Positions 10,444 through 59,361 of a DNA stretch of 64,000 nucleotides are shown one piece after another. Every line of letters begins with the position of its first letter. The first letter of the stretch is position 1. The notes under the pieces were generated by a model, which made no database searches, had not been told where the DNA came from, and saw nothing but the letters and a program-made list of their open reading frames with translations. Origin of the DNA: a virus; IMG/VR virus record IMGVR_UViG_3300027714_000009, positions 1 through 64,000 of that record; one strand, 5' to 3'. Both the position numbers and the translations under genes were made by a program.

Positions 10444-10857
10444 CTACTTAATTTCGTAGTAGCTAGCACCCTCAGGTACTGGGTTTTTGCCTTGATAATC
10501 TGCAATAGCAGATTTAATTGCATCTTCGGCTAGTACACTGCAATGTATCTTAACTGGAGGTAATGCAAGTTCATGTGCAATATCCATGTTCTTTATTGAG
10601 CCTGCTTTATCTAACGTCATACCTTTTACCATTGTAGTTAATAAACTACTACTAGCAATAGCACTACCGCAACCATAAGTTTTGAATTTAGCATCTTCAA
10701 TAATACCATTTTCATCTACTTTGATTTGTAAACGCATTACGTCTCCACACGCTGGAGCTCCTACCATACCTGTACCAATGTTACTTTCTTCAGCATTAAA
10801 TTTACCTACGTTTCGTGGGTTCTCATAATGGTCCATCACCTTGTCTGAATAAGCCAT
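10444..10857 (-). CDS. iscU: Fe-S cluster scaffold IscU
   Basis: DHYENPRNVG, APACGD, GCGSAIASS, LPPVKIHCS. Confidence 0.97.
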   Translation of the reverse strand: MAYSDKVMDHYENPRNVGKFNAEESNIGTGMVGAPACGDVMRLQIKVDENGIIEDAKFKTYGCGSAIASSSLLTTMVKGMTLDKAGSIKNMDIAHELALPPVKIHCSVLAEDAIKSAIADYQGKNPVPEGASYYEIK

Positions 10858-25829: not shown

Positions 25830-27041
25830 TTATCTTTCCTGTGCCATATTTGCGGCTGTAAATCCTGCTCTGTTAACTAGTTTAACATCCTTGTCCACTA
25901 CATACCCTTCACCGCCTCTTTGACCTGAAGTGCTAGCTTCAACATCTGCGTCTTGTGCATCTAGTGTTTTAATAACTATATTCTTTACTTTTTGAATGCC
26001 TTTAATAAAATTAAATGTTGCATTAAATCCGTCTATGTTACTATTTATGTAATCCATTAAACGTGCTTTCTTTGGTTCTGATAACTTACTACCATCAACA
26101 AACTTTTGGAAAGTACTTCCAAGATCATTTAGGTTGCCTGCTTTAACACTGTTGTTGATGTAAGCATAAAGTATCTTGCCAAAGTCTGCCATTTTTAATT
26201 CTGGTGGTACTGCAAACAATTTATCTATTGCTTGTGCATTTTTGTCTAAGTAATTTTCTAATTCGTCTATTGCTGGAATGTCCACACCTGGAGATTTTGT
26301 TACCATTACAGGTGGCATAATGTATGTTGCGCCTTGTTGAAATTGTGTCATATCAACATTGCTTTTTTCGCCATCTAAGCCAACTGCCATGTGTATTACT
26401 ACACCAACTTCACTGTCAGTAATCTTCTTACCAACTTCACTGTCTGCTTTTACTGAATACGTTGTTGTGTTAGGTGTGAATACATATTTGTTGTCTGTTA
26501 CTTGTGGCTTTGTTAACCAAAGTAAATCACCCATCACATATCCTCTAAAGTTATCTGGTACACAACTTTCTACTTTATCCCATATGTTAGTCATCGCTCC
26601 TATAAACTTTTTATAGTCATTTGCTTTTTTAGCATCTGGGTTTTTTGCACCTGGGCGGTTGCTTAACATTTGATTTAGACCTTTAGCACTAGTTGCTTTT
26701 CCGTCATAACCTTTTGCACTAAATCCACTTTTATCAGTAAGTACAAATTCACCTTTTTCATTTCTTCCAAACATAACAGCTGGTGAGCCGTCCCATTTAA
26801 TAGTAACTGTATTTGGTTGTTGTTCTACTTGATGTAATGTTGCAATTGCTTTTTTAGCACCTTGACTACCGTCCCATAGAATAAGATCTTCTAAGTGCTG
26901 AATTCTAGCACCGCCGGCATCTTCTGCTAATTTAGTTAAATTTGGAGTATAAAGATCTTTCTGAACTAACCTGCGTTTGCGGCTGTCTCTGTTTAGGCGT
27001 TTCTTTGTTCCTACTATATGTTCAATATCACTTATTTTCAT
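25830..27041 (-). CDS. RNA-ligase-like nucleotidyltransferase (DUF6267-like)
   Basis: HLEDL, TIKWDG (motif I KxDG), GDL, GEGYV, KLVNR. Confidence 0.6.
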   Translation of the reverse strand: MKISDIEHIVGTKKRLNRDSRKRRLVQKDLYTPNLTKLAEDAGGARIQHLEDLILWDGSQGAKKAIATLHQVEQQPNTVTIKWDGSPAVMFGRNEKGEFVLTDKSGFSAKGYDGKATSAKGLNQMLSNRPGAKNPDAKKANDYKKFIGAMTNIWDKVESCVPDNFRGYVMGDLLWLTKPQVTDNKYVFTPNTTTYSVKADSEVGKKITDSEVGVVIHMAVGLDGEKSNVDMTQFQQGATYIMPPVMVTKSPGVDIPAIDELENYLDKNAQAIDKLFAVPPELKMADFGKILYAYINNSVKAGNLNDLGSTFQKFVDGSKLSEPKKARLMDYINSNIDGFNATFNFIKGIQKVKNIVIKTLDAQDADVEASTSGQRGGEGYVVDKDVKLVNRAGFTAANMAQER

Positions 27042-27337: not shown

Positions 27338-28762
27338 CTAACTATTACTTCTTTTGAGCATAGAACGTAACTTGTCGTGGCCCTGTATTGTGTTCTCCAC
27401 AACACTATTTTCAGCAATATTCTTTTCTTGATGTGATACTTTGTTTTGTGCTTTAATTTTCTCAAACATAGCACTAGGTTGATTCATTGTAGTTCCTTGA
27501 TCATCTTCGTCTAGATCCTCAATACGCAATCCTGCAATATCAAATTTTAAGTCTACTTTTTGTCCAACACCACTACTACTACGTGTCTTCATAAACTGTA
27601 CTTGGTAACGCCCACGTTCACGCATTGCTTGGCTTGTAAATATACCAATAACGTTGTCTGCTGTTTGAATCTTACTTATACCACCTGCAATGTGGGAGTG
27701 ATCAAATTCTACTTCCTCTACTGCCGCTCTGTTTAACTGAGATGCTGTTGCAAACAAATAATCATATTCTACTGCAAAGTTACGTAATTCTTCTGATACA
27801 AATTTATCTTTAATAAACAAATCACTTGGATTTACTTTATTTTGTGCTGGCATCATTAGATCCAAGTAATCAATACATACTGCATCTATTTTGACATCAC
27901 TTTTAATTTCAAATTCTCTAATATAACTTGTAATAGCATTAATTGTAATACCATTTGGCAATTGTACAATCTGTAGCTTACCTGCTTTCTTACCTTGCAT
28001 ACGTACTTTTAAATCTACGTCAGCGGCGTTCTTAAATACTGATCTTGTGTCCATGCCAGTAATCATACTGTCTAATCGCATACTAGATAATTCTTCACTA
28101 AGCTCTAGTGTAATATATACTACATTCAATCCTGCAATTGACCAATTCAGTGCTAAGTTCTGTAAGAACAAACTCTTACCACCACCCGATGGAGCTGCAA
28201 ATATATTTAATTCGCCTCTGTTAAATCCACCATATAGTTTGTTATCAATATCTTTCCAACCTGTGCTTGTGCCACCACGTTGATTACGTACACGTTCAAT
28301 ACGTGCCGCTGGATCTTCCCAATAGTCTGTACCCATATGTTTAGCAAGTCCAATATTGACTGCATCTTTAATCATACGTTCTACTGGTCCGTAGTCACCT
28401 TTTTCTAACAAGTCTGCACTTGTTAAGATTGCACCTTCTAATGCTTTATGTCTACAAAATACTTCAAACTCATCTATAAACCATTTCTTGTGTCTGTCAT
28501 CTACATCTTTTAGTGGCTGTAACTCTAGCCCTGTTGTAGCTACAATTTGCTCCAATGTAGGTAACGCACTATATCCCATAGAATGTTCTTGTATAAACTC
28601 AACACCCTTGCGTAGTTCTCTATCAAAATACAAAGGATCAAGTATTCCATTTACTCTAGCGAATAAGTCTTGGTCCTGAGATAAAAACTCAACAAATAAT
28701 CGTTGTAAGTCTATGCCATATTCTTTTGCTTGTACATTTTCATCTTTTTTCATCATTTGCAA
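27338..28762 (-). CDS. replicative DnaB-like helicase (gp41-like)
   Basis: APSGGGKS Walker A, TLE, IDYLDL, SQLNR, KTRS. Confidence 0.93.
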   Translation of the reverse strand: MQMMKKDENVQAKEYGIDLQRLFVEFLSQDQDLFARVNGILDPLYFDRELRKGVEFIQEHSMGYSALPTLEQIVATTGLELQPLKDVDDRHKKWFIDEFEVFCRHKALEGAILTSADLLEKGDYGPVERMIKDAVNIGLAKHMGTDYWEDPAARIERVRNQRGGTSTGWKDIDNKLYGGFNRGELNIFAAPSGGGKSLFLQNLALNWSIAGLNVVYITLELSEELSSMRLDSMITGMDTRSVFKNAADVDLKVRMQGKKAGKLQIVQLPNGITINAITSYIREFEIKSDVKIDAVCIDYLDLMMPAQNKVNPSDLFIKDKFVSEELRNFAVEYDYLFATASQLNRAAVEEVEFDHSHIAGGISKIQTADNVIGIFTSQAMRERGRYQVQFMKTRSSSGVGQKVDLKFDIAGLRIEDLDEDDQGTTMNQPSAMFEKIKAQNKVSHQEKNIAENSVVENTIQGHDKLRSMLKRSNS

Positions 28763-29766
28763 TACTTTCTCATAATTAATTCAATTTTAGTTGCATTACT
28801 TTCTGCACTATTTAATATACTCTTTATTGTATACAATCTTCCGTATTTTGTCAAGGCATCTGCGGCATCTTTGCAATCTTTCCATTCTGGAAATGCTACA
28901 CTCCACCCATGCTTTATTGCTGCCTTACACATTAACTTTCCTGCATCATCTGCGTCTGGTAATATTATAATATGTTTCTGTAAGCTGTGTAGTATATCTG
29001 CTTGTTCATCATTTATATTATTACTACCTATTGCACACCCATCAGTTACTATTGCATCAAGTTGTCCTTCAGTTACAATAACAACATGCTTGTCTGGAGT
29101 CTGTCTATCTAACCCATACACAAAGTCTTTCTTAGGTTGCTGATTGTAGTACTTGGGCATACCATCTGGAATACTATCTCCTGCCCATCTTGCTGTGTAT
29201 CCTACTACTTTATTTTTATATGTAAATGGTAATATGAAACGCTTGTTGACTCTACCATTTGTTTTACTATTACTATACATGAATCTAGGATCAGTTACAT
29301 CAAACCCACGTCTAGTTAAATATTCTACTGCTTCCGACCAATCTGCTGTAGGCTCGTCATGTAGCATAAATGGTTTAGTATCTTCTGGCAGCTCTTTTAA
29401 GTCCCAATCAATAATTAAGTTTTTACGTTTCTCTGTTTTTATTAATAAAGTTGCTACATCTTGTTCACGTAACAATTCAAGTTGAATACGATTAATATCA
29501 TTCTCATCTGCACCTAATGTAGTTAGTAATTGTTTTAATCTAGATGTTACTTTGCCCTGTGGTGCCCATCCAGTTTTAAATGTGCAATTAAAGCAATTAT
29601 ATTGAAACTTTTCTACGTCAAATAAGAATCCACCTCTGCCTTTAGTATCAGGTCGTGCTTGACCATTTCTAGTACACATTGGGCAATTGCCAGATATCCA
29701 TCCACTAGGGCTTGATCGCCAGTTAGCCGGTACCAGAGTTCTTACGTAGTCGTTCATCAAAGTCAT
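28753..29766 (-). CDS. DNA primase (gp61-like)
   Basis: CPMC...CFNC zinc domain; TOPRIM EGQLD, PDADDAG, KDAAD. Confidence 0.92.
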   Translation of the reverse strand: MTLMNDYVRTLVPANWRSSPSGWISGNCPMCTRNGQARPDTKGRGGFLFDVEKFQYNCFNCTFKTGWAPQGKVTSRLKQLLTTLGADENDINRIQLELLREQDVATLLIKTEKRKNLIIDWDLKELPEDTKPFMLHDEPTADWSEAVEYLTRRGFDVTDPRFMYSNSKTNGRVNKRFILPFTYKNKVVGYTARWAGDSIPDGMPKYYNQQPKKDFVYGLDRQTPDKHVVIVTEGQLDAIVTDGCAIGSNNINDEQADILHSLQKHIIILPDADDAGKLMCKAAIKHGWSVAFPEWKDCKDAADALTKYGRLYTIKSILNSAESNATKIELIMRKYCK

Positions 29767-29772
29767 ACATGT

Positions 29773-29801
29773 ATATTACACTCTTATTACTACTTTGTCA
29801 A
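29773..29801 (-). promoter_or_regulatory. sigma70-type promoter, predicted leaderless
   Basis: TTGACA-N17-TAATAT-N6-ATG(29766). Confidence 0.65.
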
Positions 29802-30609
29802 GTGTTCCTGTTGGTGATGTGTGTTTTGTTCTGATTAATTTTACGTTTGTACGGAATGTCCATGGATCTATTCCAGTGTGATTAGTATATGGGTAAAATT
29901 CTTCGGTGTACGAGCCTAATATTATGTTAAACCAGTCGCTTTCGCCTGGATTGTCATTTAATGAGCCTTGCACCCAAAAATTACCTGTATAGCCTGTGCC
30001 ATATACTGCTAGTGTAATTAATCCGTTTGGTTTGTTATAGTATCCTGTGGCTTTCATGGCACTACTGTAATAGTATGTGTCTACGCCTACAACTGAAGTT
30101 GTAAAGGATGAATTAATTTGTGTTGTTAATGGTAATGCATCACCATCTTCTGTTACTTCAACAGTGTAGTTAGGTCGCATGTTTAAGTCTGCAAACATAG
30201 GAACAACTAAACCTTGATCAGTAGTGTAACTAAACACTAGATCATAAAATCCTTGTGAGAATAAAGAACTCTCTCCACTTGTAATTATTACTTTAACACT
30301 ACCTGCATCGTAGTCTGTTATAATAGCTTTTTTACTAACTACAGTAGATCTATCATTACGATCAATTAAGGATACTTGCATAGTAGTGCCGTGTAACATA
30401 ATTGGCTTGCGATCTTGGTTCTTTATAAAGAAGAAAAACTCAGTATCAAATCCTCGAAATAGTTTTAAAAATCTATAGTTAACCGGACTGTTTACTGAGG
30501 TACCTTTTGCACTTGCGTACTTGCCAAGCCCTGGCGATGAACCGTGGTCTTGTAAGGTGTAAAGATCACCTACTTGATTAATATTGTATGTTGTTCCGTA
30601 ATTTGACAT
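29776..30609 (-). CDS. putative structural protein
   Basis: beta-rich; AGGAG SD and TAAATA at 30629-30634. Confidence 0.55.
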   Translation of the reverse strand: MSNYGTTYNINQVGDLYTLQDHGSSPGLGKYASAKGTSVNSPVNYRFLKLFRGFDTEFFFFIKNQDRKPIMLHGTTMQVSLIDRNDRSTVVSKKAIITDYDAGSVKVIITSGESSLFSQGFYDLVFSYTTDQGLVVPMFADLNMRPNYTVEVTEDGDALPLTTQINSSFTTSVVGVDTYYYSSAMKATGYYNKPNGLITLAVYGTGYTGNFWVQGSLNDNPGESDWFNIILGSYTEEFYPYTNHTGIDPWTFRTNVKLIRTKHTSPTGTLDKVVIRV

Positions 30610-30672: not shown

Positions 30673-31044
30673 ATGCAAACAAAACATCAGAAACTATTAG
30701 ACGAATATCCATTCTTAACTGTCATAGCATATGCCGGAAACGAATACCTTGGGATTATCCAAAATATAGATAACCATGTTGCTAGCTTATATGTGTACGA
30801 TCGCTTAACTGATACCCAAGAGAGAATTAAGTTCTTGGAATTAGGCGAAGAATGGTGGTGGGAAACGAATAGAAAATTACCCATCAACATTGCATTACTT
30901 AATAGATGGAATTACCAATACGCAATTCAAAGTTTTAATGTAAAACAAATGGAAGTTATTGTAGGACCAGAAGTAAGACTAAGCAACAGCATCACCAAGC
31001 GGATTAAAAGACGTAGTATTAACCTTGTAAAGAAAAACCACTAG
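30673..31044 (+). CDS. conserved hypothetical phage protein
   Basis: 123 aa; TAAATA 6 nt upstream of the ATG. Confidence 0.75.
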   Translation: MQTKHQKLLDEYPFLTVIAYAGNEYLGIIQNIDNHVASLYVYDRLTDTQERIKFLELGEEWWWETNRKLPINIALLNRWNYQYAIQSFNVKQMEVIVGPEVRLSNSITKRIKRRSINLVKKNH

Positions 31045-31603
31045 CTAACATATTTAATTGCAATACTATAGCAACTGCATATGCGTGAGCATGTGCTTTT
31101 TTAAAAAAGTATTCATCTGTGCTAGGTTTAACCCATACATCAGCGTTAATAGCGTCCCAACCCTTATTAAGTAAGTGACGCTTCGCCGGTCTGATTACTG
31201 CAAGCACTGCCGCTAGCTGTTCTACACTAGTAGGCTTCATTGTATTAATAATATCAAAGTGCTTATGTATGTGGAAACATTGTTCTACTACTTCTCGATG
31301 TTCTAGTAACTCCCACATAGGATCCATTGCAAGCAAATCATCTAGCTTCTTCTTAGTATCAATAGATTTATATAATCCAACGTTAATAACATCAATTTTA
31401 AAGTAACCCATAGACTCTGCTTCTTTATGATCTATTGTGCTAAGTCCATTAAAAGGATTACTTGGTATTTCATGGAAGTACACACCAGTGTTATGTTTTA
31501 CTTGCTTATGTTCGCGAGCAATCATTGCAGGTGTGCCGTTAATAAGGTTTAATAGCTTATCTCTATTAGCTACATCAATGTCAATATCTGTGTTAACTAT
31601 CAT
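31019..31603 (-). CDS. miniature DNA polymerase III alpha (DnaE) catalytic-core protein, 194 aa
   Basis: DIDID, HNTGVY, GYFKID, LAVIRP, YFFKKAHAHAYA; start MIVNT after AAGGA. Confidence 0.8.
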   Translation of the reverse strand: MIVNTDIDIDVANRDKLLNLINGTPAMIAREHKQVKHNTGVYFHEIPSNPFNGLSTIDHKEAESMGYFKIDVINVGLYKSIDTKKKLDDLLAMDPMWELLEHREVVEQCFHIHKHFDIINTMKPTSVEQLAAVLAVIRPAKRHLLNKGWDAINADVWVKPSTDEYFFKKAHAHAYAVAIVLQLNMLASGFSLQG

Positions 31604-31685
31604 TTGGGTCTTCCTTATCCATTTTATATAACATATATACTGGTAATACAAAACATGCTAATATATAAATCAATGACCATATCAT
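31593..31685 (-). CDS. 30-aa membrane micropeptide (MIWSLIYILACFVLPVYMLYKMDKEDPNDS)
   Basis: ATGA overlap with the upstream stop; one TM helix; fills the gap exactly. Confidence 0.5.
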   Translation of the reverse strand: MIWSLIYILACFVLPVYMLYKMDKEDPNDS

Positions 31686-32353
31686 ATTTTCATTTGCTCC
31701 ATAATTTCTGTTACAAATCTACCATCCTGTGGATTGACATTCATTCTACGTTGCCAATAATCAACATCTAAATAATCTGTTATCATTTTTAGTTGTTCGC
31801 CACTCATGTTATCAATTAAATCTTGTGCCGCTGTACTTGTAAACAATACCCACGGACTAATTTTGCCACTGCATATATGAAATACTGCAAGTGCTGGTGC
31901 TATTGTATGAAAGTATGTATTATATGTTGTGTTGTTTTCTTCTGCCCACTTCTGTAAAAACAATACAGTACGCTCAACACCTCTTTCACACGATTCGTTG
32001 TTTTGTCGTTCTTTCATCCAAGCCGCAAAATGCTTATCTCTACACCAATGGTCTAATCTTATTGAATTCTTTAATAGCCAAGTTGTGTAAGACGGTACAT
32101 CATCAATACCAATGTCCCTACAATAATAACCATACTTACAGAACGCAATATAATATTGACTTTTTGCAAACTCCTGGTAGCTTTTTTCATTCTTTGCATT
32201 TGTTCCTATTTTATAGAATAACTGATAACCTCTAAAACCAAGTTGTACATGCTTTTCGTCTTTTTGCATGTGCCTACGCTTCTGTTCACATAAATGAACA
32301 ACTAGTGTATTCTCTTTCTTGAATGTTTTAGAACAGTATTCACATTTAAACAT
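31682..32353 (-). CDS. zinc-finger-led replication-region protein
   Basis: N-terminal CEYC-x12-HLC. Confidence 0.6.
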   Translation of the reverse strand: MFKCEYCSKTFKKENTLVVHLCEQKRRHMQKDEKHVQLGFRGYQLFYKIGTNAKNEKSYQEFAKSQYYIAFCKYGYYCRDIGIDDVPSYTTWLLKNSIRLDHWCRDKHFAAWMKERQNNESCERGVERTVLFLQKWAEENNTTYNTYFHTIAPALAVFHICSGKISPWVLFTSTAAQDLIDNMSGEQLKMITDYLDVDYWQRRMNVNPQDGRFVTEIMEQMKI

Positions 32354-32812
32354 TTATTTTAACAGCTCTTTAATTTGCTTCTTATCGTACCCATACTCTT
32401 CAAACAACTCCTTGAAGTCATCTTTAGTTTTAGTACTAATAAAAATTTCTACTTCATCGTCATTCAGATGATTATAGTTTTCTATAACCCACTTCTGTAT
32501 CTTACTTTGTTTCATTGCTTTTCCAGGTGCAATCCAAGGATGGAATGTAGTCTTCCCTAGTCCAACTAACTGCATTAGCTGATGTTGCAACTGTGGGTGC
32601 TTACGTAGCTTGTTAAAGTGTACATTTACTACTTCGTTAGTCCACTCTAAGTAATGCTCAGTAAACATCTTATCACCACAACTACTAGTATAACGCATTA
32701 GTAGCCATATGCCTAGCTTTTTCTTTTCTTCTTCAGTAAGACTGTCATACCAACCTCTATCCTTGGTATCAATACCTCGCATCTCTTCTTTAATGTTTAG
32801 TTTATTTGACAA
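32354..32812 (-). CDS. putative clamp-loader small subunit (gp62-like)
   Basis: WLLMRYTS..NEVVN..HPQLQ..FHPWI pattern resembles gp62; context. Confidence 0.45.
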   Translation of the reverse strand: MSNKLNIKEEMRGIDTKDRGWYDSLTEEEKKKLGIWLLMRYTSSCGDKMFTEHYLEWTNEVVNVHFNKLRKHPQLQHQLMQLVGLGKTTFHPWIAPGKAMKQSKIQKWVIENYNHLNDDEVEIFISTKTKDDFKELFEEYGYDKKQIKELLK

Positions 32813-33023
32813 TTACTACTTCTCCTTCAGTTTCTATCCAAACTTTAGCACCACATGATAGTGGTTTGTCTGGACTGTATATAACTTTCGAATCACCTTT
32901 AATAGACACTTCATGTCCATATGTATTACTCTTAGAAGTCTTGCATGTTAATACAGGTTCTCTTTCACCTGTCTTAGCATTACGTTTAACAACGTGCTGA
33001 TTAACATGTATCCTAGTCTTCAT
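32802..33023 (-). CDS. small conserved phage protein
   Basis: IHVNQH...PLSCGAKVWIET. Confidence 0.75.
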   Translation of the reverse strand: MKTRIHVNQHVVKRNAKTGEREPVLTCKTSKSNTYGHEVSIKGDSKVIYSPDKPLSCGAKVWIETEGEVVIVK

Positions 33024-33029
33024 AGTTTA

Positions 33030-33530
33030 CTACCAAAGCTCACTAATGTCAAGTACTTCAGGTAACTTGTTTGATTCCTTTACAAACAGTACACAGGGTG
33101 GATTTGCTCCGTCATGCAATGGAACATTTAATAAATGTCCAAACTTTAGCTTAGGTGCATACCATTTTACATCTGTGTAAATATTAGTTATTGATATGTC
33201 CAAGTACTTAGGTGTAAATCCTGTAATAGGATTAAATGCAAACACACTAAAGCCCCTGTCATTCAAACTCATTAAACTTACAACTTCTGGATCACCAACT
33301 GATGGATCACAAATAACTATGCTCCAATCTAATGGCATTGTAATTGAGTAATCACCAATTTTTAATACTGCGGCTGGTGCATAAAAACTTTCTAGGAACA
33401 CTAATGGAATAAAATAGTAATCAATGTGTCCTGGGTTGCTATAGTCTAAAATGCTGTATCGTAAGTCTTCTACCTGATCTGGAATCTCATCCAGTTCGTA
33501 AGTATTGTTTTCTACTGTTAAAATTTTCAT
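33030..33530 (-). CDS. conserved hypothetical protein
   Basis: 166-aa beta-rich ORF downstream of uvsW. Confidence 0.75.
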   Translation of the reverse strand: MKILTVENNTYELDEIPDQVEDLRYSILDYSNPGHIDYYFIPLVFLESFYAPAAVLKIGDYSITMPLDWSIVICDPSVGDPEVVSLMSLNDRGFSVFAFNPITGFTPKYLDISITNIYTDVKWYAPKLKFGHLLNVPLHDGANPPCVLFVKESNKLPEVLDISELW

Positions 33531-36489: not shown

Positions 36490-37197
36490 CTATAATGCTA
36501 GGATTTTTACCCGGTTTAACATAGTTTCTTTAGAATCTGAGTACTTTGACACTTCATGGTTCTTAACTGTGCCTCGTATCTTAATAACTCTATCAGCAAC
36601 AATGTCGCTAATATCTGGTTGATCTCTCCACCAAAACTTAATAATGTCTTTACCCATGTAACATGCAGATATCATGTAAATGTTACTAGATTGTATAAAT
36701 TTAACATCTAGCACTTCTACAGCAAGATCGTAACGTTTAGACTTCTCACCAAAGTATTGGCTACTGTGCTTCAAAGAAACCATTTTATCAGCTACTACTT
36801 CACGTTTTTTATCAACTGTAACACTATGTGGCAAGCTAGCAATAATACTAACAGAAAACTTACTTACATCAGCTTCTGACAATGCTTTAACAACATTAGC
36901 TTCAAAGTTGTTAAGATTATTAGTCATCTTCTTAATCATAAGTTTGCCGTTAATGTGATCAACTAAGTCTGTACCCTTTGATGAGTACTCATTTACAATT
37001 GCTGTAGTTCTTGCCTTTGAAGATAGAATTTTTCCAATTTCAGACTTATTGTCCTCAATTCTTACTTCTGTTTCAGAATCGGTAGTTGTGTCAATATACC
37101 CTTGACCACTGCGGATAAAACCTTGCTTTTCGTGTACTTTGATAGCTACACACATTACATCATGTACTGTAACTGAAGGGTAAGGAACTTTTTTCAT
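36490..37197 (-). CDS. hypothetical protein with C-terminal OB-fold-like region
   Basis: IRGTVKNH...ETMLNRVK. Confidence 0.6.
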   Translation of the reverse strand: MKKVPYPSVTVHDVMCVAIKVHEKQGFIRSGQGYIDTTTDSETEVRIEDNKSEIGKILSSKARTTAIVNEYSSKGTDLVDHINGKLMIKKMTNNLNNFEANVVKALSEADVSKFSVSIIASLPHSVTVDKKREVVADKMVSLKHSSQYFGEKSKRYDLAVEVLDVKFIQSSNIYMISACYMGKDIIKFWWRDQPDISDIVADRVIKIRGTVKNHEVSKYSDSKETMLNRVKILAL

Positions 37198-58155: not shown

Positions 58156-59361
58156 TTATTCTGGATAGTGTTTAAAATCGTCAAAATATAGGCCTAATGA
58201 TGCCCATATTGCGTCTGGGTACAAACTTGTATACTTGTTTGAATTCTTTTTATAGCTTTCCCATAAAGTTTTACTTGCATCCAACTTACTGTAGTATTTC
58301 CAAAACTCTGTATCTGTGCGATTACTTAACATATAATGGTGTAATATGTAATCTGAGTTATCTTTTTGTACTTTCATTATTGCCTTGTTGTATGCTTTTG
58401 GTGGTGAACCTTTTAATATACATCTTACTAGTAGTGTGATACTGTATTGTACTAAAAATAATCCATTTGCTTCTAATGGATCAACAAACCCTTGACCAAG
58501 TCCAATTGATACTACATTATCTACCCAAGGGTTCTTCAGTACACCTGGAGTCCATTTAAGTAAACGTGGCTCTATTCCTTTAAATGGTGTTCTGTGAGCA
58601 GTCCATTTTTTAAACTTTTCTAACGCTTCTTCTTCGCTTACAAAATCAGTACTAAAAACATAACCAGTTCCTGTTCTATGTTGCAAGTCTACCATAAACT
58701 GCCAACCATCTGGTCTAGCGAATGTTTTTGTATATGGTATACTTTCGCCTTCTAGTTCTAACGGCCTAACCCAAGAACGATTAACTTTATGATGTTCACT
58801 AAATGTTTCTTCTGTTTTATCTTTGACAAACTGTCTACGAAATCCTGTAGCGTCTACATATAAATCATATCCTGGTGGAAGTTCTTCTAATGTATCAATA
58901 ACATGGTTAACACGTTTACAATGATCACGTACAACGTGTCCTGCAAGGTTAGCATCTAAATGATATGCTACTGCTCTCCATCCTTCTTTATCGTACAAGT
59001 CTGGATTTATATCATCTCTAACTTTTTTACCTTGCTTAAATTCTTTATACCAATCATTAAATAATGTTTTAGGTTCGTTTTGCCAAAAAGTCATTAAGTA
59101 TGGATCTGCACCTAATGCATCCCATTCGTATTTTATATTTCCATATTTGTGAACTGCATTACATCCGTCCATCCATTCTTTTTCTGGAATACCTAGTTCT
59201 TCAAAAAATGCACCTATTTGTGGAAGTGTTCCTTCTCCTACTCCTACAGTAGGAATTTCATCACTTTCTATAAGTGTTATTTCTGCATCAGGTAAAAACT
59301 TTTCCATGTAACCTGCACACCACCAGCCTGCTGTTCCACCGCCAATAATACATATTTTCAT
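58156..59361 (-). CDS. flavin-dependent (tryptophan-type) halogenase
   Basis: GGGTAG, VGVGEGT, CNAVHK (catalytic Lys position), DATG, GWQFMV, FVDPLEANG. Confidence 0.85.
   Translation of the reverse strand: MKICIIGGGTAGWWCAGYMEKFLPDAEITLIESDEIPTVGVGEGTLPQIGAFFEELGIPEKEWMDGCNAVHKYGNIKYEWDALGADPYLMTFWQNEPKTLFNDWYKEFKQGKKVRDDINPDLYDKEGWRAVAYHLDANLAGHVVRDHCKRVNHVIDTLEELPPGYDLYVDATGFRRQFVKDKTEETFSEHHKVNRSWVRPLELEGESIPYTKTFARPDGWQFMVDLQHRTGTGYVFSTDFVSEEEALEKFKKWTAHRTPFKGIEPRLLKWTPGVLKNPWVDNVVSIGLGQGFVDPLEANGLFLVQYSITLLVRCILKGSPPKAYNKAIMKVQKDNSDYILHHYMLSNRTDTEFWKYYSKLDASKTLWESYKKNSNKYTSLYPDAIWASLGLYFDDFKHYPE

Follow-up and report, generated by a model that had tools for sequence, protein, structure and literature searches.

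A minimal, phage-specific alpha subunit of DNA polymerase III (Pol III alpha) was described in 2021 by Iyer, Anantharaman, Krishnan, Burroughs and Aravind (Viruses 13:63, PMC7824862) from the comparative genomics of the group 2.2 jumbo phages. In the passages of that paper devoted to it, the enzyme is split into an N-terminal protein that binds nucleoside triphosphate (NTP) and a C-terminal protein that binds Mg2+ and the template, the two being encoded by distant genes; it accompanies a family-B polymerase (PolB), the other Pol III domains are absent, and the split enzyme "might cooperate" with PolB in the synthesis of one strand or in repair. The subject of the present work is a gene on the minus strand of a 64,000-nucleotide stretch of viral DNA (positions 1 to 64,000 of the IMG/VR record IMGVR_UViG_3300027714_000009; this whole stretch is called the window below). 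Its product of 194 amino acids (aa), the C-unit, is very likely the C-terminal subunit of a heterodimeric minimal Pol III alpha-like polymerase of the Rak2/PA5oct/Atu_ph07-like ("group 2.2") jumbo myoviruses, with an activity that is predicted; the partner subunit is called the N-unit. The architecture is the one set out in those passages, and homologues of the window protein occur in phages named there, for example Atu_ph07. The discovery of the split enzyme is already in print and the family has a name in PHROG, the window copy being a new marine member. What is added here is the residue-level position of the split, a map of the deletions, a rare natural fusion of the two halves, selection data, and the conserved position of the gene next to the primase and the helicase.

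The C-unit and its likeness to DnaE

The gene comprises 585 nt (194 codons and a TAA stop) with its ATG at 31603, and the protein (P0001) begins MIVNTDIDIDV. A TTG located 48 nt upstream of the ATG is a possible longer start; Met stands at the aligned ATG in all 80 related viral loci, where the open reading frames (ORFs) are 190-195 aa long. These 80 loci were kept from the 238 confirmed IMG/VR relatives of the window protein. The protein matches phrog_11778, annotated "DNA polymerase", at E 2.3e-62, with residues 4-187 aligned to profile positions 6-192 of 197. A tblastn search with the C-unit returned 96 phage records, none of them at 60% identity or more; among the best 40 listed, the window copy, which comes from an uncultivated marine phage, is 36-48% identical to the copies of cultured phages, and all of these 40 are phages of ~285-490 kb save one 94-kb record. 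Several GenBank records name the protein "DNA polymerase III alpha" or "DnaE-like". The family is large: in an exhaustive search of 1.84 billion representatives at 50% identity, 405 clusters matched at E<=1e-3, 61 of them at E<=1e-30, and at 90% identity over 7,900 of the 8,000 candidates scored were clusters that matched the C-unit at a similar length, many of them from marine metagenomes.

The likeness to DnaE emerged solely with profile and structure searches, and not with single-sequence searches; a phmmer search of P0001 against the Protein Data Bank (PDB) had SPT6 as its best, insignificant match (E 0.64). An alignment of 90 full-length C-unit representatives is the source of the conservation figures given below, of the search profile and of the input to AlphaFold2 (AF2). 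Searched against 177,635 PDB sequences, the profile found nine DnaE sequences at E 4.9e-6 to 1.1e-4, all other matches having E of at least 0.8, and the K-x-D, RP and KSH motifs line up in its alignments with DnaE. The AF2 model of the C-unit was predicted with a mean local confidence (pLDDT) of 95.9 and a global template-modelling confidence (pTM) of 0.88. With this model, Foldseek returned DnaE and PolC chains at every one of its first 16 ranks (best E 8.8e-4, prob 1.00), at query-normalised template-modelling scores (TM-scores) of ~0.42-0.45; the root-mean-square deviation (rmsd) is high in these matches because the targets hold large insertions. VIA-align placed 15 C-family polymerase entries at Z 10.2-6.5 and rmsd 3.4-4.2 Å, with 188-193 of the 194 residues aligned; the top-scoring unrelated fold reached Z 3.7. 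The model spans residues 397-788 of the E. coli enzyme, 458-846 of the Thermus enzyme and 968-1303 of PolC. The resemblance of the C-unit to DnaE is far beyond chance.

A preliminary description of this locus, made from the sequence, had picked out five motifs in the ORF as counterparts of DnaE motifs: DIDID (residues 6-10), HNTGVY (37-42), GYFKIDVI (66-73), LAVIRP (134-139) and YFFKKAHAHAYA (165-176). All five are present in that order, and the equivalences hold against E. coli K-12 DnaE, which was fetched and translated as the reference and onto which residues were mapped through HMMER alignments of the 90-sequence profile together with the structural ranges. The gene and its mapped motifs are as follows.

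31019..31603, minus strand: P0001, 194 aa, predicted C-terminal subunit of a two-piece minimal Pol III alpha-like enzyme (ORF, phrog_11778, profile, AF2, VIA-align)
31574..31588, minus strand: DIDID (D6, D8, D10), the metal-binding DxD palm strand, equivalent to E. coli D401/D403/D405 (PDFDVDF at 400)
31484..31495, minus strand: H37-N-T-G40, equivalent to E. coli H511-A-G-G514, the point of re-entry into the palm after the missing thumb (alignment)
31391..31399, minus strand: K69-I-D71, equivalent to E. coli K553-F-D555, the third catalytic Asp and its Lys (HMMER)
31181..31192, minus strand: R138-P139-A-K141, finger motif equivalent to E. coli R639-P640-G (HMMER)
31091..31105, minus strand: F167-K-K-A-H171, finger helix equivalent to E. 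coli F756-N-K758-S759-H760 (HMMER)

D6, D8, K69 and D71 are invariant in all 90 representatives, as is P139, while D10, H37, G40, R138, K141, K168 and H171 are each conserved in at least 90% of them. When the window copy is counted together with its 80 close relatives, D6, D8, D10, D71, H37, G40, K168 and H171 are kept in 81 of 81. The retention of all three catalytic aspartates, as claimed in the preliminary description, is borne out in D6, D8 and D71. K36-H37..G40 align with E. coli K510-H511..G514 (KHAGGVVI), and both finger motifs, RPG and (N/K)KSH, are present in the C-unit, the latter including the presumptive steric-gate His. In the modelling part of one study (PMC8485763), E. coli H760 is the presumptive steric gate of Pol III alpha against ribonucleotides.

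In the combined alignments, the C-unit consists of three pieces of E. coli DnaE. The first (~400-432) is the DxD strand and the next helix; the second (~508-641), with a deletion of ~17 residues inside it, leads back into the palm and holds the third Asp and the initial finger helices; the third (~740-788) is the KSH helix. What is absent is the thumb (~433-507), ~100 finger residues (642-739), everything before 397 and everything after 788. The absence of the thumb and finger segments had been recognised in the preliminary description, as had that of the PHP, HhH and OB domains from the ORF, which agrees with the lack of any Pfam match; a PHP domain was found in 0/5 of the records searched (the window's own record, the marine relative G001 described below, PA5oct, 121Q and SCTP-2), and PolA likewise in 0/5 of the same records. 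That description had, however, called the 194-aa ORF a minimal family-C core, which is an overstatement: it overlooked a further loss, that of the opening part of the Pol-beta-type palm with the GRGS loop that binds the nucleotide (E. coli 361-364). Because this part of the palm is absent, the 194-aa ORF is not a self-sufficient core. We infer a minimal core of ~360 aa spread over two polypeptides.

A protein of 194 aa standing against the 1160 aa of E. coli DnaE could also be the decaying remnant of a captured bacterial dnaE, an artefact of assembly, or the C-terminal part of an intein-split DnaE joined by trans-splicing, as split-intein DnaE is found in cyanobacteria. These possibilities have next to no probability in view of the conservation of the gene, which in practice refutes decay. 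In 80/80 related viral loci, the ORF is intact at 190-195 aa with all 12 key residues retained. The Nei-Gojobori dN/dS against the window copy has a median of 0.095 over the 62 of 80 pairs with unsaturated dS, and over 255 pairs with 0.05<dS<1 the median is 0.063. The C-unit is under strong purifying selection, and the homologues showed neither the frameshifts nor the lost aspartates that would, by the preliminary description, have refuted its claim; its argument that intact motifs speak against decay stands. The thousands of homologous clusters of similar length speak against these possibilities too. The DNA contigs of 14 sequencing runs, with the source sample possibly among them, contain the whole stretch, which also speaks against an artefact; against an intein, no Hint or intein Pfam match was found in the ORF and only five residues precede the DxD strand.

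A weak hint of transcription of the C-unit gene comes from RNA-library contigs of two studies, which show no difference from the window sequence and span a large part of the gene: one (X15) covers 30976-31145, 31153-31455 and 31535-31761, and another (X18) 31464-31667. DNA carry-over is possible in such libraries, and the uncovered parts of the gene carry no evidential weight.

The N-unit and the fit of the two halves

The missing part of the palm can be seen joined to the C-unit in one protein. In P0185, a 375-aa metagenome representative, the match to the query is confined to residues 190-373 and the N-terminal part holds the sequence GVGRGSSSAS; a single match of 59.6 bits to Pfam PF07733 (DNA_pol3_alpha), at residues 97-207, spans the junction and takes in the DxD strand. 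P0185 is therefore a natural fusion of N-unit and C-unit in the order of DnaE, and it is the sole such form among the 150 best representatives. A search for longer C-unit homologues (341-2000 aa) found none at E<=0.001, which is a weak negative since P0185 itself was missed, and P0185 folded without an alignment gave an unusable model (pLDDT 35.7). Two further representatives, P0181 (233 aa) and P0252 (192 aa), have the first ~84-110 residues of the C-unit followed by unrelated sequence, and may be chimeric contigs or broken genes.

Using the N-terminal part of P0185 as the query, tblastn found 92 phage records, in which the protein is often annotated as "DNA polymerase III alpha subunit". Four phages, XaC1, Vibrio phage 2.275.O, EJP2 and UE-S1, are common to the best 40 records listed for each half, with the two genes 30-42 kb apart. 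A separate N-unit gene is also found in a close relative of the window phage, a 204,772-bp fragment (G001) whose C-unit is 80% identical to that of the window and which is collinear with the window, 29/29 ORFs being matched at 58-93% aa identity. Its N-unit (P0272, 168 aa) reaches PF07733 at 35.5 bits, and the N-units of relatives do so at 33.3-35.5 bits, the cut-off being 23.9. Homologues of P0272 form 1,698 clusters at 90% identity with lengths of ~160-180 aa, and PF07733 is precomputed for 120/120 of those listed. A profile of 50 N-unit sequences aligns to E. coli 320-392, including the GRGS at 361, and ends a few residues before the start of the C-unit. As shown by where the two alignments end, the break lies at ~E. 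coli 393-399, between the helix of the GS loop and the DxD strand, inside the palm.

The co-occurrence of the two units was tested in five complete phages that have a C-unit, and the N-unit profile found exactly one ORF, of 169-182 aa, in each of the five. The distance between the two genes varies:

121Q: C-unit to N-unit, 31 kb
PA5oct: C-unit to N-unit, 43 kb
SCTP-2: C-unit to N-unit, 116 kb
Atu_ph07: C-unit to N-unit, 182 kb, with the N-unit at 240,853
Phosso: C-unit to N-unit, 224 kb

The Atu_ph07 paper reports a predicted Pol III alpha, gp316, which, judged by its position, is probably the N-unit. The N-unit also has a conserved neighbourhood of its own, shared by the marine relative and the Vibrio phage: in G001 and in Vibrio phage 2.275.O alike, its gene is followed by a small "...N(M/L)NARGD..." protein and then by a GroES-like co-chaperonin. 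The neighbour genes are located as follows.

G001, locus L086, 1109-1501 and 723-1100: neighbour genes of the N-unit
Vibrio phage 2.275.O, locus L004, 3498-4164: neighbour genes of the N-unit

The fit of the two halves was examined by complex prediction, using the N-unit and the C-unit of G001 with an alignment for each chain. The pair scored 0.90 against 0.00 for the best of three controls; a mark of 0.90 is reached by 116/157 solved complexes and 2/215 mismatched pairs, a rough calibration for a prediction that used its own alignments. Three runs share at least 94% of their contacts, the pLDDT of the partner is at least 90, and the predicted interface includes residues 129-142 of the N-unit (GS loop 134-142) as well as residues 5-13 (DxD strand) and 168-171 (KKAH helix) of the C-unit. 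Full-length relatives of this split gene have solved structures, and the score may therefore only mirror the likeness of its halves to DnaE. In the predicted complex, the GS loop lies against the DxD strand, which supports a reconstituted palm and is not a demonstration of binding.

The preliminary description had left a choice between one subunit of a split DnaE and a stand-alone, non-processive nucleotidyltransferase acting in priming, repair or nucleotide signalling. The first of these is backed by the partner genes, the natural fusion and the complex prediction. An enzyme that acts without any partner is very improbable: the GS loop (E. coli 361-364) sits on the N-unit and is absent from the ORF, the N-unit accompanies the C-unit in 5/5 complete genomes, and P0185 carries both in one chain. 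This is so even though the chain alone is predicted to fold with a pLDDT of 95.9, has all three carboxylates on it, and comes from a record on which the partner was not found, for that record is merely a ~25% fragment.

The record in question is a 90,378-bp linear fragment, estimated to be ~25% complete, and carries one C-unit (E 6.5e-78). A six-frame search of it with PF07733 gave no match, and the N-unit was not found on it with tblastn and phmmer using the N-terminal part of P0185, with tblastn using the N-units of the Vibrio phage and XaC1 and their neighbours, or with the 50-sequence N-unit profile. Because the record is ~25% complete, the absence of the N-unit and of PolB from it neither confirms nor refutes their presence in the phage. 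In G001, the N-unit gene is on the same strand as the C-unit and 117 kb further downstream, and the window's record has only 31 kb in that direction; if the gene order follows that of G001, the partner gene would lie off the end of the record. The searches that the preliminary description had proposed, for other DnaE pieces, PHP, PolB and PolA, gave nothing on the record itself, and yielded the N-unit and PolB in the relatives; the structural comparison with DnaE that it had also proposed bore out the kinship.

Several points weigh against a two-subunit polymerase in the window phage. The N-unit is not on its 90,378-bp record, where the best of 1,161 six-frame pieces has an E of 0.25 in an unfiltered hidden Markov model (HMM) search, and PolB was not found on it either. 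A three-sequence N-unit profile found the gene in only one (G001) of the five long related contigs searched, the other four being 34-60% complete. P0001 itself matches no Pfam family at E<=0.01 and no NCBIfam, and does not reach the PF07733 threshold. The missing thumb and the ~100 missing finger residues may leave DNA binding too weak without further partners. We infer that the C-terminal unit of Iyer et al. is the phrog_11778 family from the way that unit is described in the passages cited above. Full-text literature searches on the split enzyme found only the genomic description of 2021, and no biochemical study.

The replication module and the predicted activity

The C-unit gene lies within a T4-like replication module, as the preliminary description had noted. 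On the minus strand, the order is a gp32-like single-stranded DNA-binding protein, UvsX, UvsY, an AAA+ protein, a UvsW-like helicase, four small conserved genes and the C-unit; past the C-unit come a convergent gene, a gene resembling virion structural genes, the primase and the helicase. Further T4-like core genes within the window encode a gp23-type head protein and a sheath protein. Three genes next to or near the C-unit are:

27338-28762, minus strand: DnaB/gp41-like helicase (Pfam DnaB_C; PHROG DnaB-like helicase)
28753-29766, minus strand: DnaG-like primase (Pfam Toprim_2; PHROG primase)
30673..31044, plus strand: convergent 123-aa gene, phrog_11637, no Pfam match, its 3' end overlapping the C-unit gene by 26 nt

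The order of the module matches that of 121Q, down to the convergent gene and the pair of genes that separates C-unit and helicase, and is also annotated in PA5oct, Atu_ph07, SCTP-2 and Phosso. The C-unit lies two genes upstream of the primase and helicase in 6/6 genomes examined. The tail-to-tail overlapping pair is annotated in Phosso, PA5oct, Atu_ph07, SCTP-2 and 121Q (gp17, 35% identical). The convergent gene could encode a functional partner or be a regulatory antisense arrangement.

In the mechanism that we propose, the C-unit would supply the DxD strand (D6, D8), K69/D71 and a short finger module made up of R138-P139 and K168/K169-x-H171, and the N-unit, whose gene would lie outside the 90-kb fragment in the window phage, would supply the GRGS nucleotide-binding part of the palm. 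The two would assemble into a core of ~360 aa without PHP, thumb, clamp-binding, HhH and OB domains, in which the Pol-beta-type palm is restored. This heterodimer is predicted to catalyse the template-directed addition of deoxynucleoside triphosphates (dNTPs), and is expected to be distributive because it has no thumb, clamp-binding or DNA-binding tail domains. Its role would be that of a helper to the family-B replicase, which it would not replace, in tasks such as short primer extension, gap filling or repair. A family-B polymerase scores above the Pfam cut-off in 5/5 of the complete phages, and PolB is also present in the related fragments G001 and G002.

The same two subunits could in principle form a catalytic heterodimer that is not a templated polymerase, such as a terminal transferase, a maker of RNA primers or a synthase of signalling nucleotides. 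The Pol-beta-fold superfamily includes many non-templated transferases, and the lack of a thumb, clamp-binding, HhH or OB domain would suit such an enzyme. We consider it quite unlikely, since the DnaE-specific finger elements around the incoming dNTP are kept, with the counterpart of H760 (near-)invariant, the structural matches that score best are to replicative polymerases and extend along the whole chain, and the gene sits in a replication module by primase and helicase in all six genomes. A templated polymerase that assists PolB is the reading we prefer, and a bolder version of it can be put forward. The mini Pol III might be a primer-extension "starter" that is physically coupled to the primase-helicase and hands the DNA over to a clamp-bound PolB. 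We regard this as speculative and somewhat doubtful; all that supports it is the fixed position of the gene in the six genomes, together with a steric-gate His that has been kept and processivity modules that have all been lost. If it were true, these phages would have a hybrid replisome, in which a C-family "starter", in the role of Pol alpha or of B. subtilis DnaE, is combined with a B-family "elongator" of archaeo-eukaryotic type.

There are other features around the C-unit that are worth recording. Directly upstream of it (31682-32353, minus strand) is a gene for a 223-aa protein of phrog_11058, a homologue of 121Q gp14, with an N-terminal C2H2 zinc finger (zf-C2H2_jaz, 22.9 bits, cut-off 22.6); the other three of the small conserved genes that separate the UvsW helicase from the C-unit are at 32354-32812, 32802-33023 and 33030-33530. 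Between the C-unit and the primase (29776-30609, minus strand) lies a 277-aa gene with weak virion-structural PHROG matches. Its PA5oct counterpart, gp262, is annotated as detected in the virion by electrospray ionisation tandem mass spectrometry (ESI-MS/MS), and on that annotation a structural gene is conserved inside the replication module. Between UvsY and UvsW (36490-37197, minus strand), a 235-aa ORF occupies the slot of 121Q gp9, a DnaQ-like exonuclease (Pfam RNase_T); it neither resembles gp9 nor matches any Pfam family, and its sole PDB match is the 8-kDa domain of Pol beta at an insignificant E of 0.34. A DnaQ-like exonuclease was considered as a fixed third partner of the enzyme and rejected: PF00929 is found in PA5oct, Atu_ph07 and 121Q (gp9), and is absent from SCTP-2 and the fragments G000 and G001. 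Further away, there is a 403-aa DUF6267 protein (25830-27041, minus strand; 122 bits) just downstream of the helicase and a small virion protein, 81% identical in the collinear relative, and two auxiliary-looking genes, for a NifU-like protein of Fe-S cluster assembly (10444-10857, minus strand; phrog_8429, E 1e-40) and a tryptophan-halogenase-like protein (58156-59361, minus strand; phrog_2928, E 7e-82).

Comparison with known C-family polymerases

Set beside bacterial DnaE (E. coli 2HNH/5FKV; Thermus aquaticus 2HPI/3E0D), the C-unit has counterparts of D401/D403/D555, K553, R639-P640 and K758/H760, and its palm and fingers are homologous to those of the bacterial enzyme (profile E 4.9e-6; Z 9.9-7.4 over 188-192 residues). 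The differences lie in what has been removed and in how the rest is divided. Against the 1160 aa of the E. coli enzyme, the 194-aa C-unit is without PHP, thumb, the ~642-739 finger segment, and the clamp-binding, HhH, OB and tau-binding parts, and the first part of the palm is carried by another polypeptide in the phage enzyme. No smaller version of the C-family replicative polymerase fold is known than this two-piece enzyme, in which the palm itself is divided between polypeptides. If the ~360-aa heterodimer is active, it would set the minimal requirements for C-family catalysis and offer a tractable model of DnaE function without thumb, PHP and clamp contacts, and a whole clade of jumbo phages would use C-family and B-family polymerases side by side.

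The best structural match of the C-unit is the PolC of a member of the Firmicutes, Geobacillus kaustophilus (3F2B/3F2C), with Z 10.2 and rmsd 3.6 Å over 193 residues of the chain 968-1303. PolC is an enzyme of more than 1400 aa with an inserted exonuclease. There is no sequence-level match to it, and its Z score is within 1 unit of those of DnaE, so that the two are tied. The DnaE of Bacillus subtilis is a second C-family polymerase beside PolC and, as set out in the relevant parts of two papers (PMC5627055, PMC5737612), extends the products of primase. Its likeness to the phage enzyme is one of functional analogy only, the B. subtilis enzyme being a full-length single chain.

Cyanobacterial DnaE is also a divided enzyme, whose catalytic subunit is made from two distant genes and is intein-split. 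The phage enzyme differs from it in having no Hint domain detectable with Pfam, in leaving no room for one within the five residues that precede its DxD strand, and in that the phage N-units end directly after the position equivalent to E. coli 392. With the split inside the palm and no intein to join the pieces, the two halves of the phage enzyme must act as a non-covalent heterodimer.

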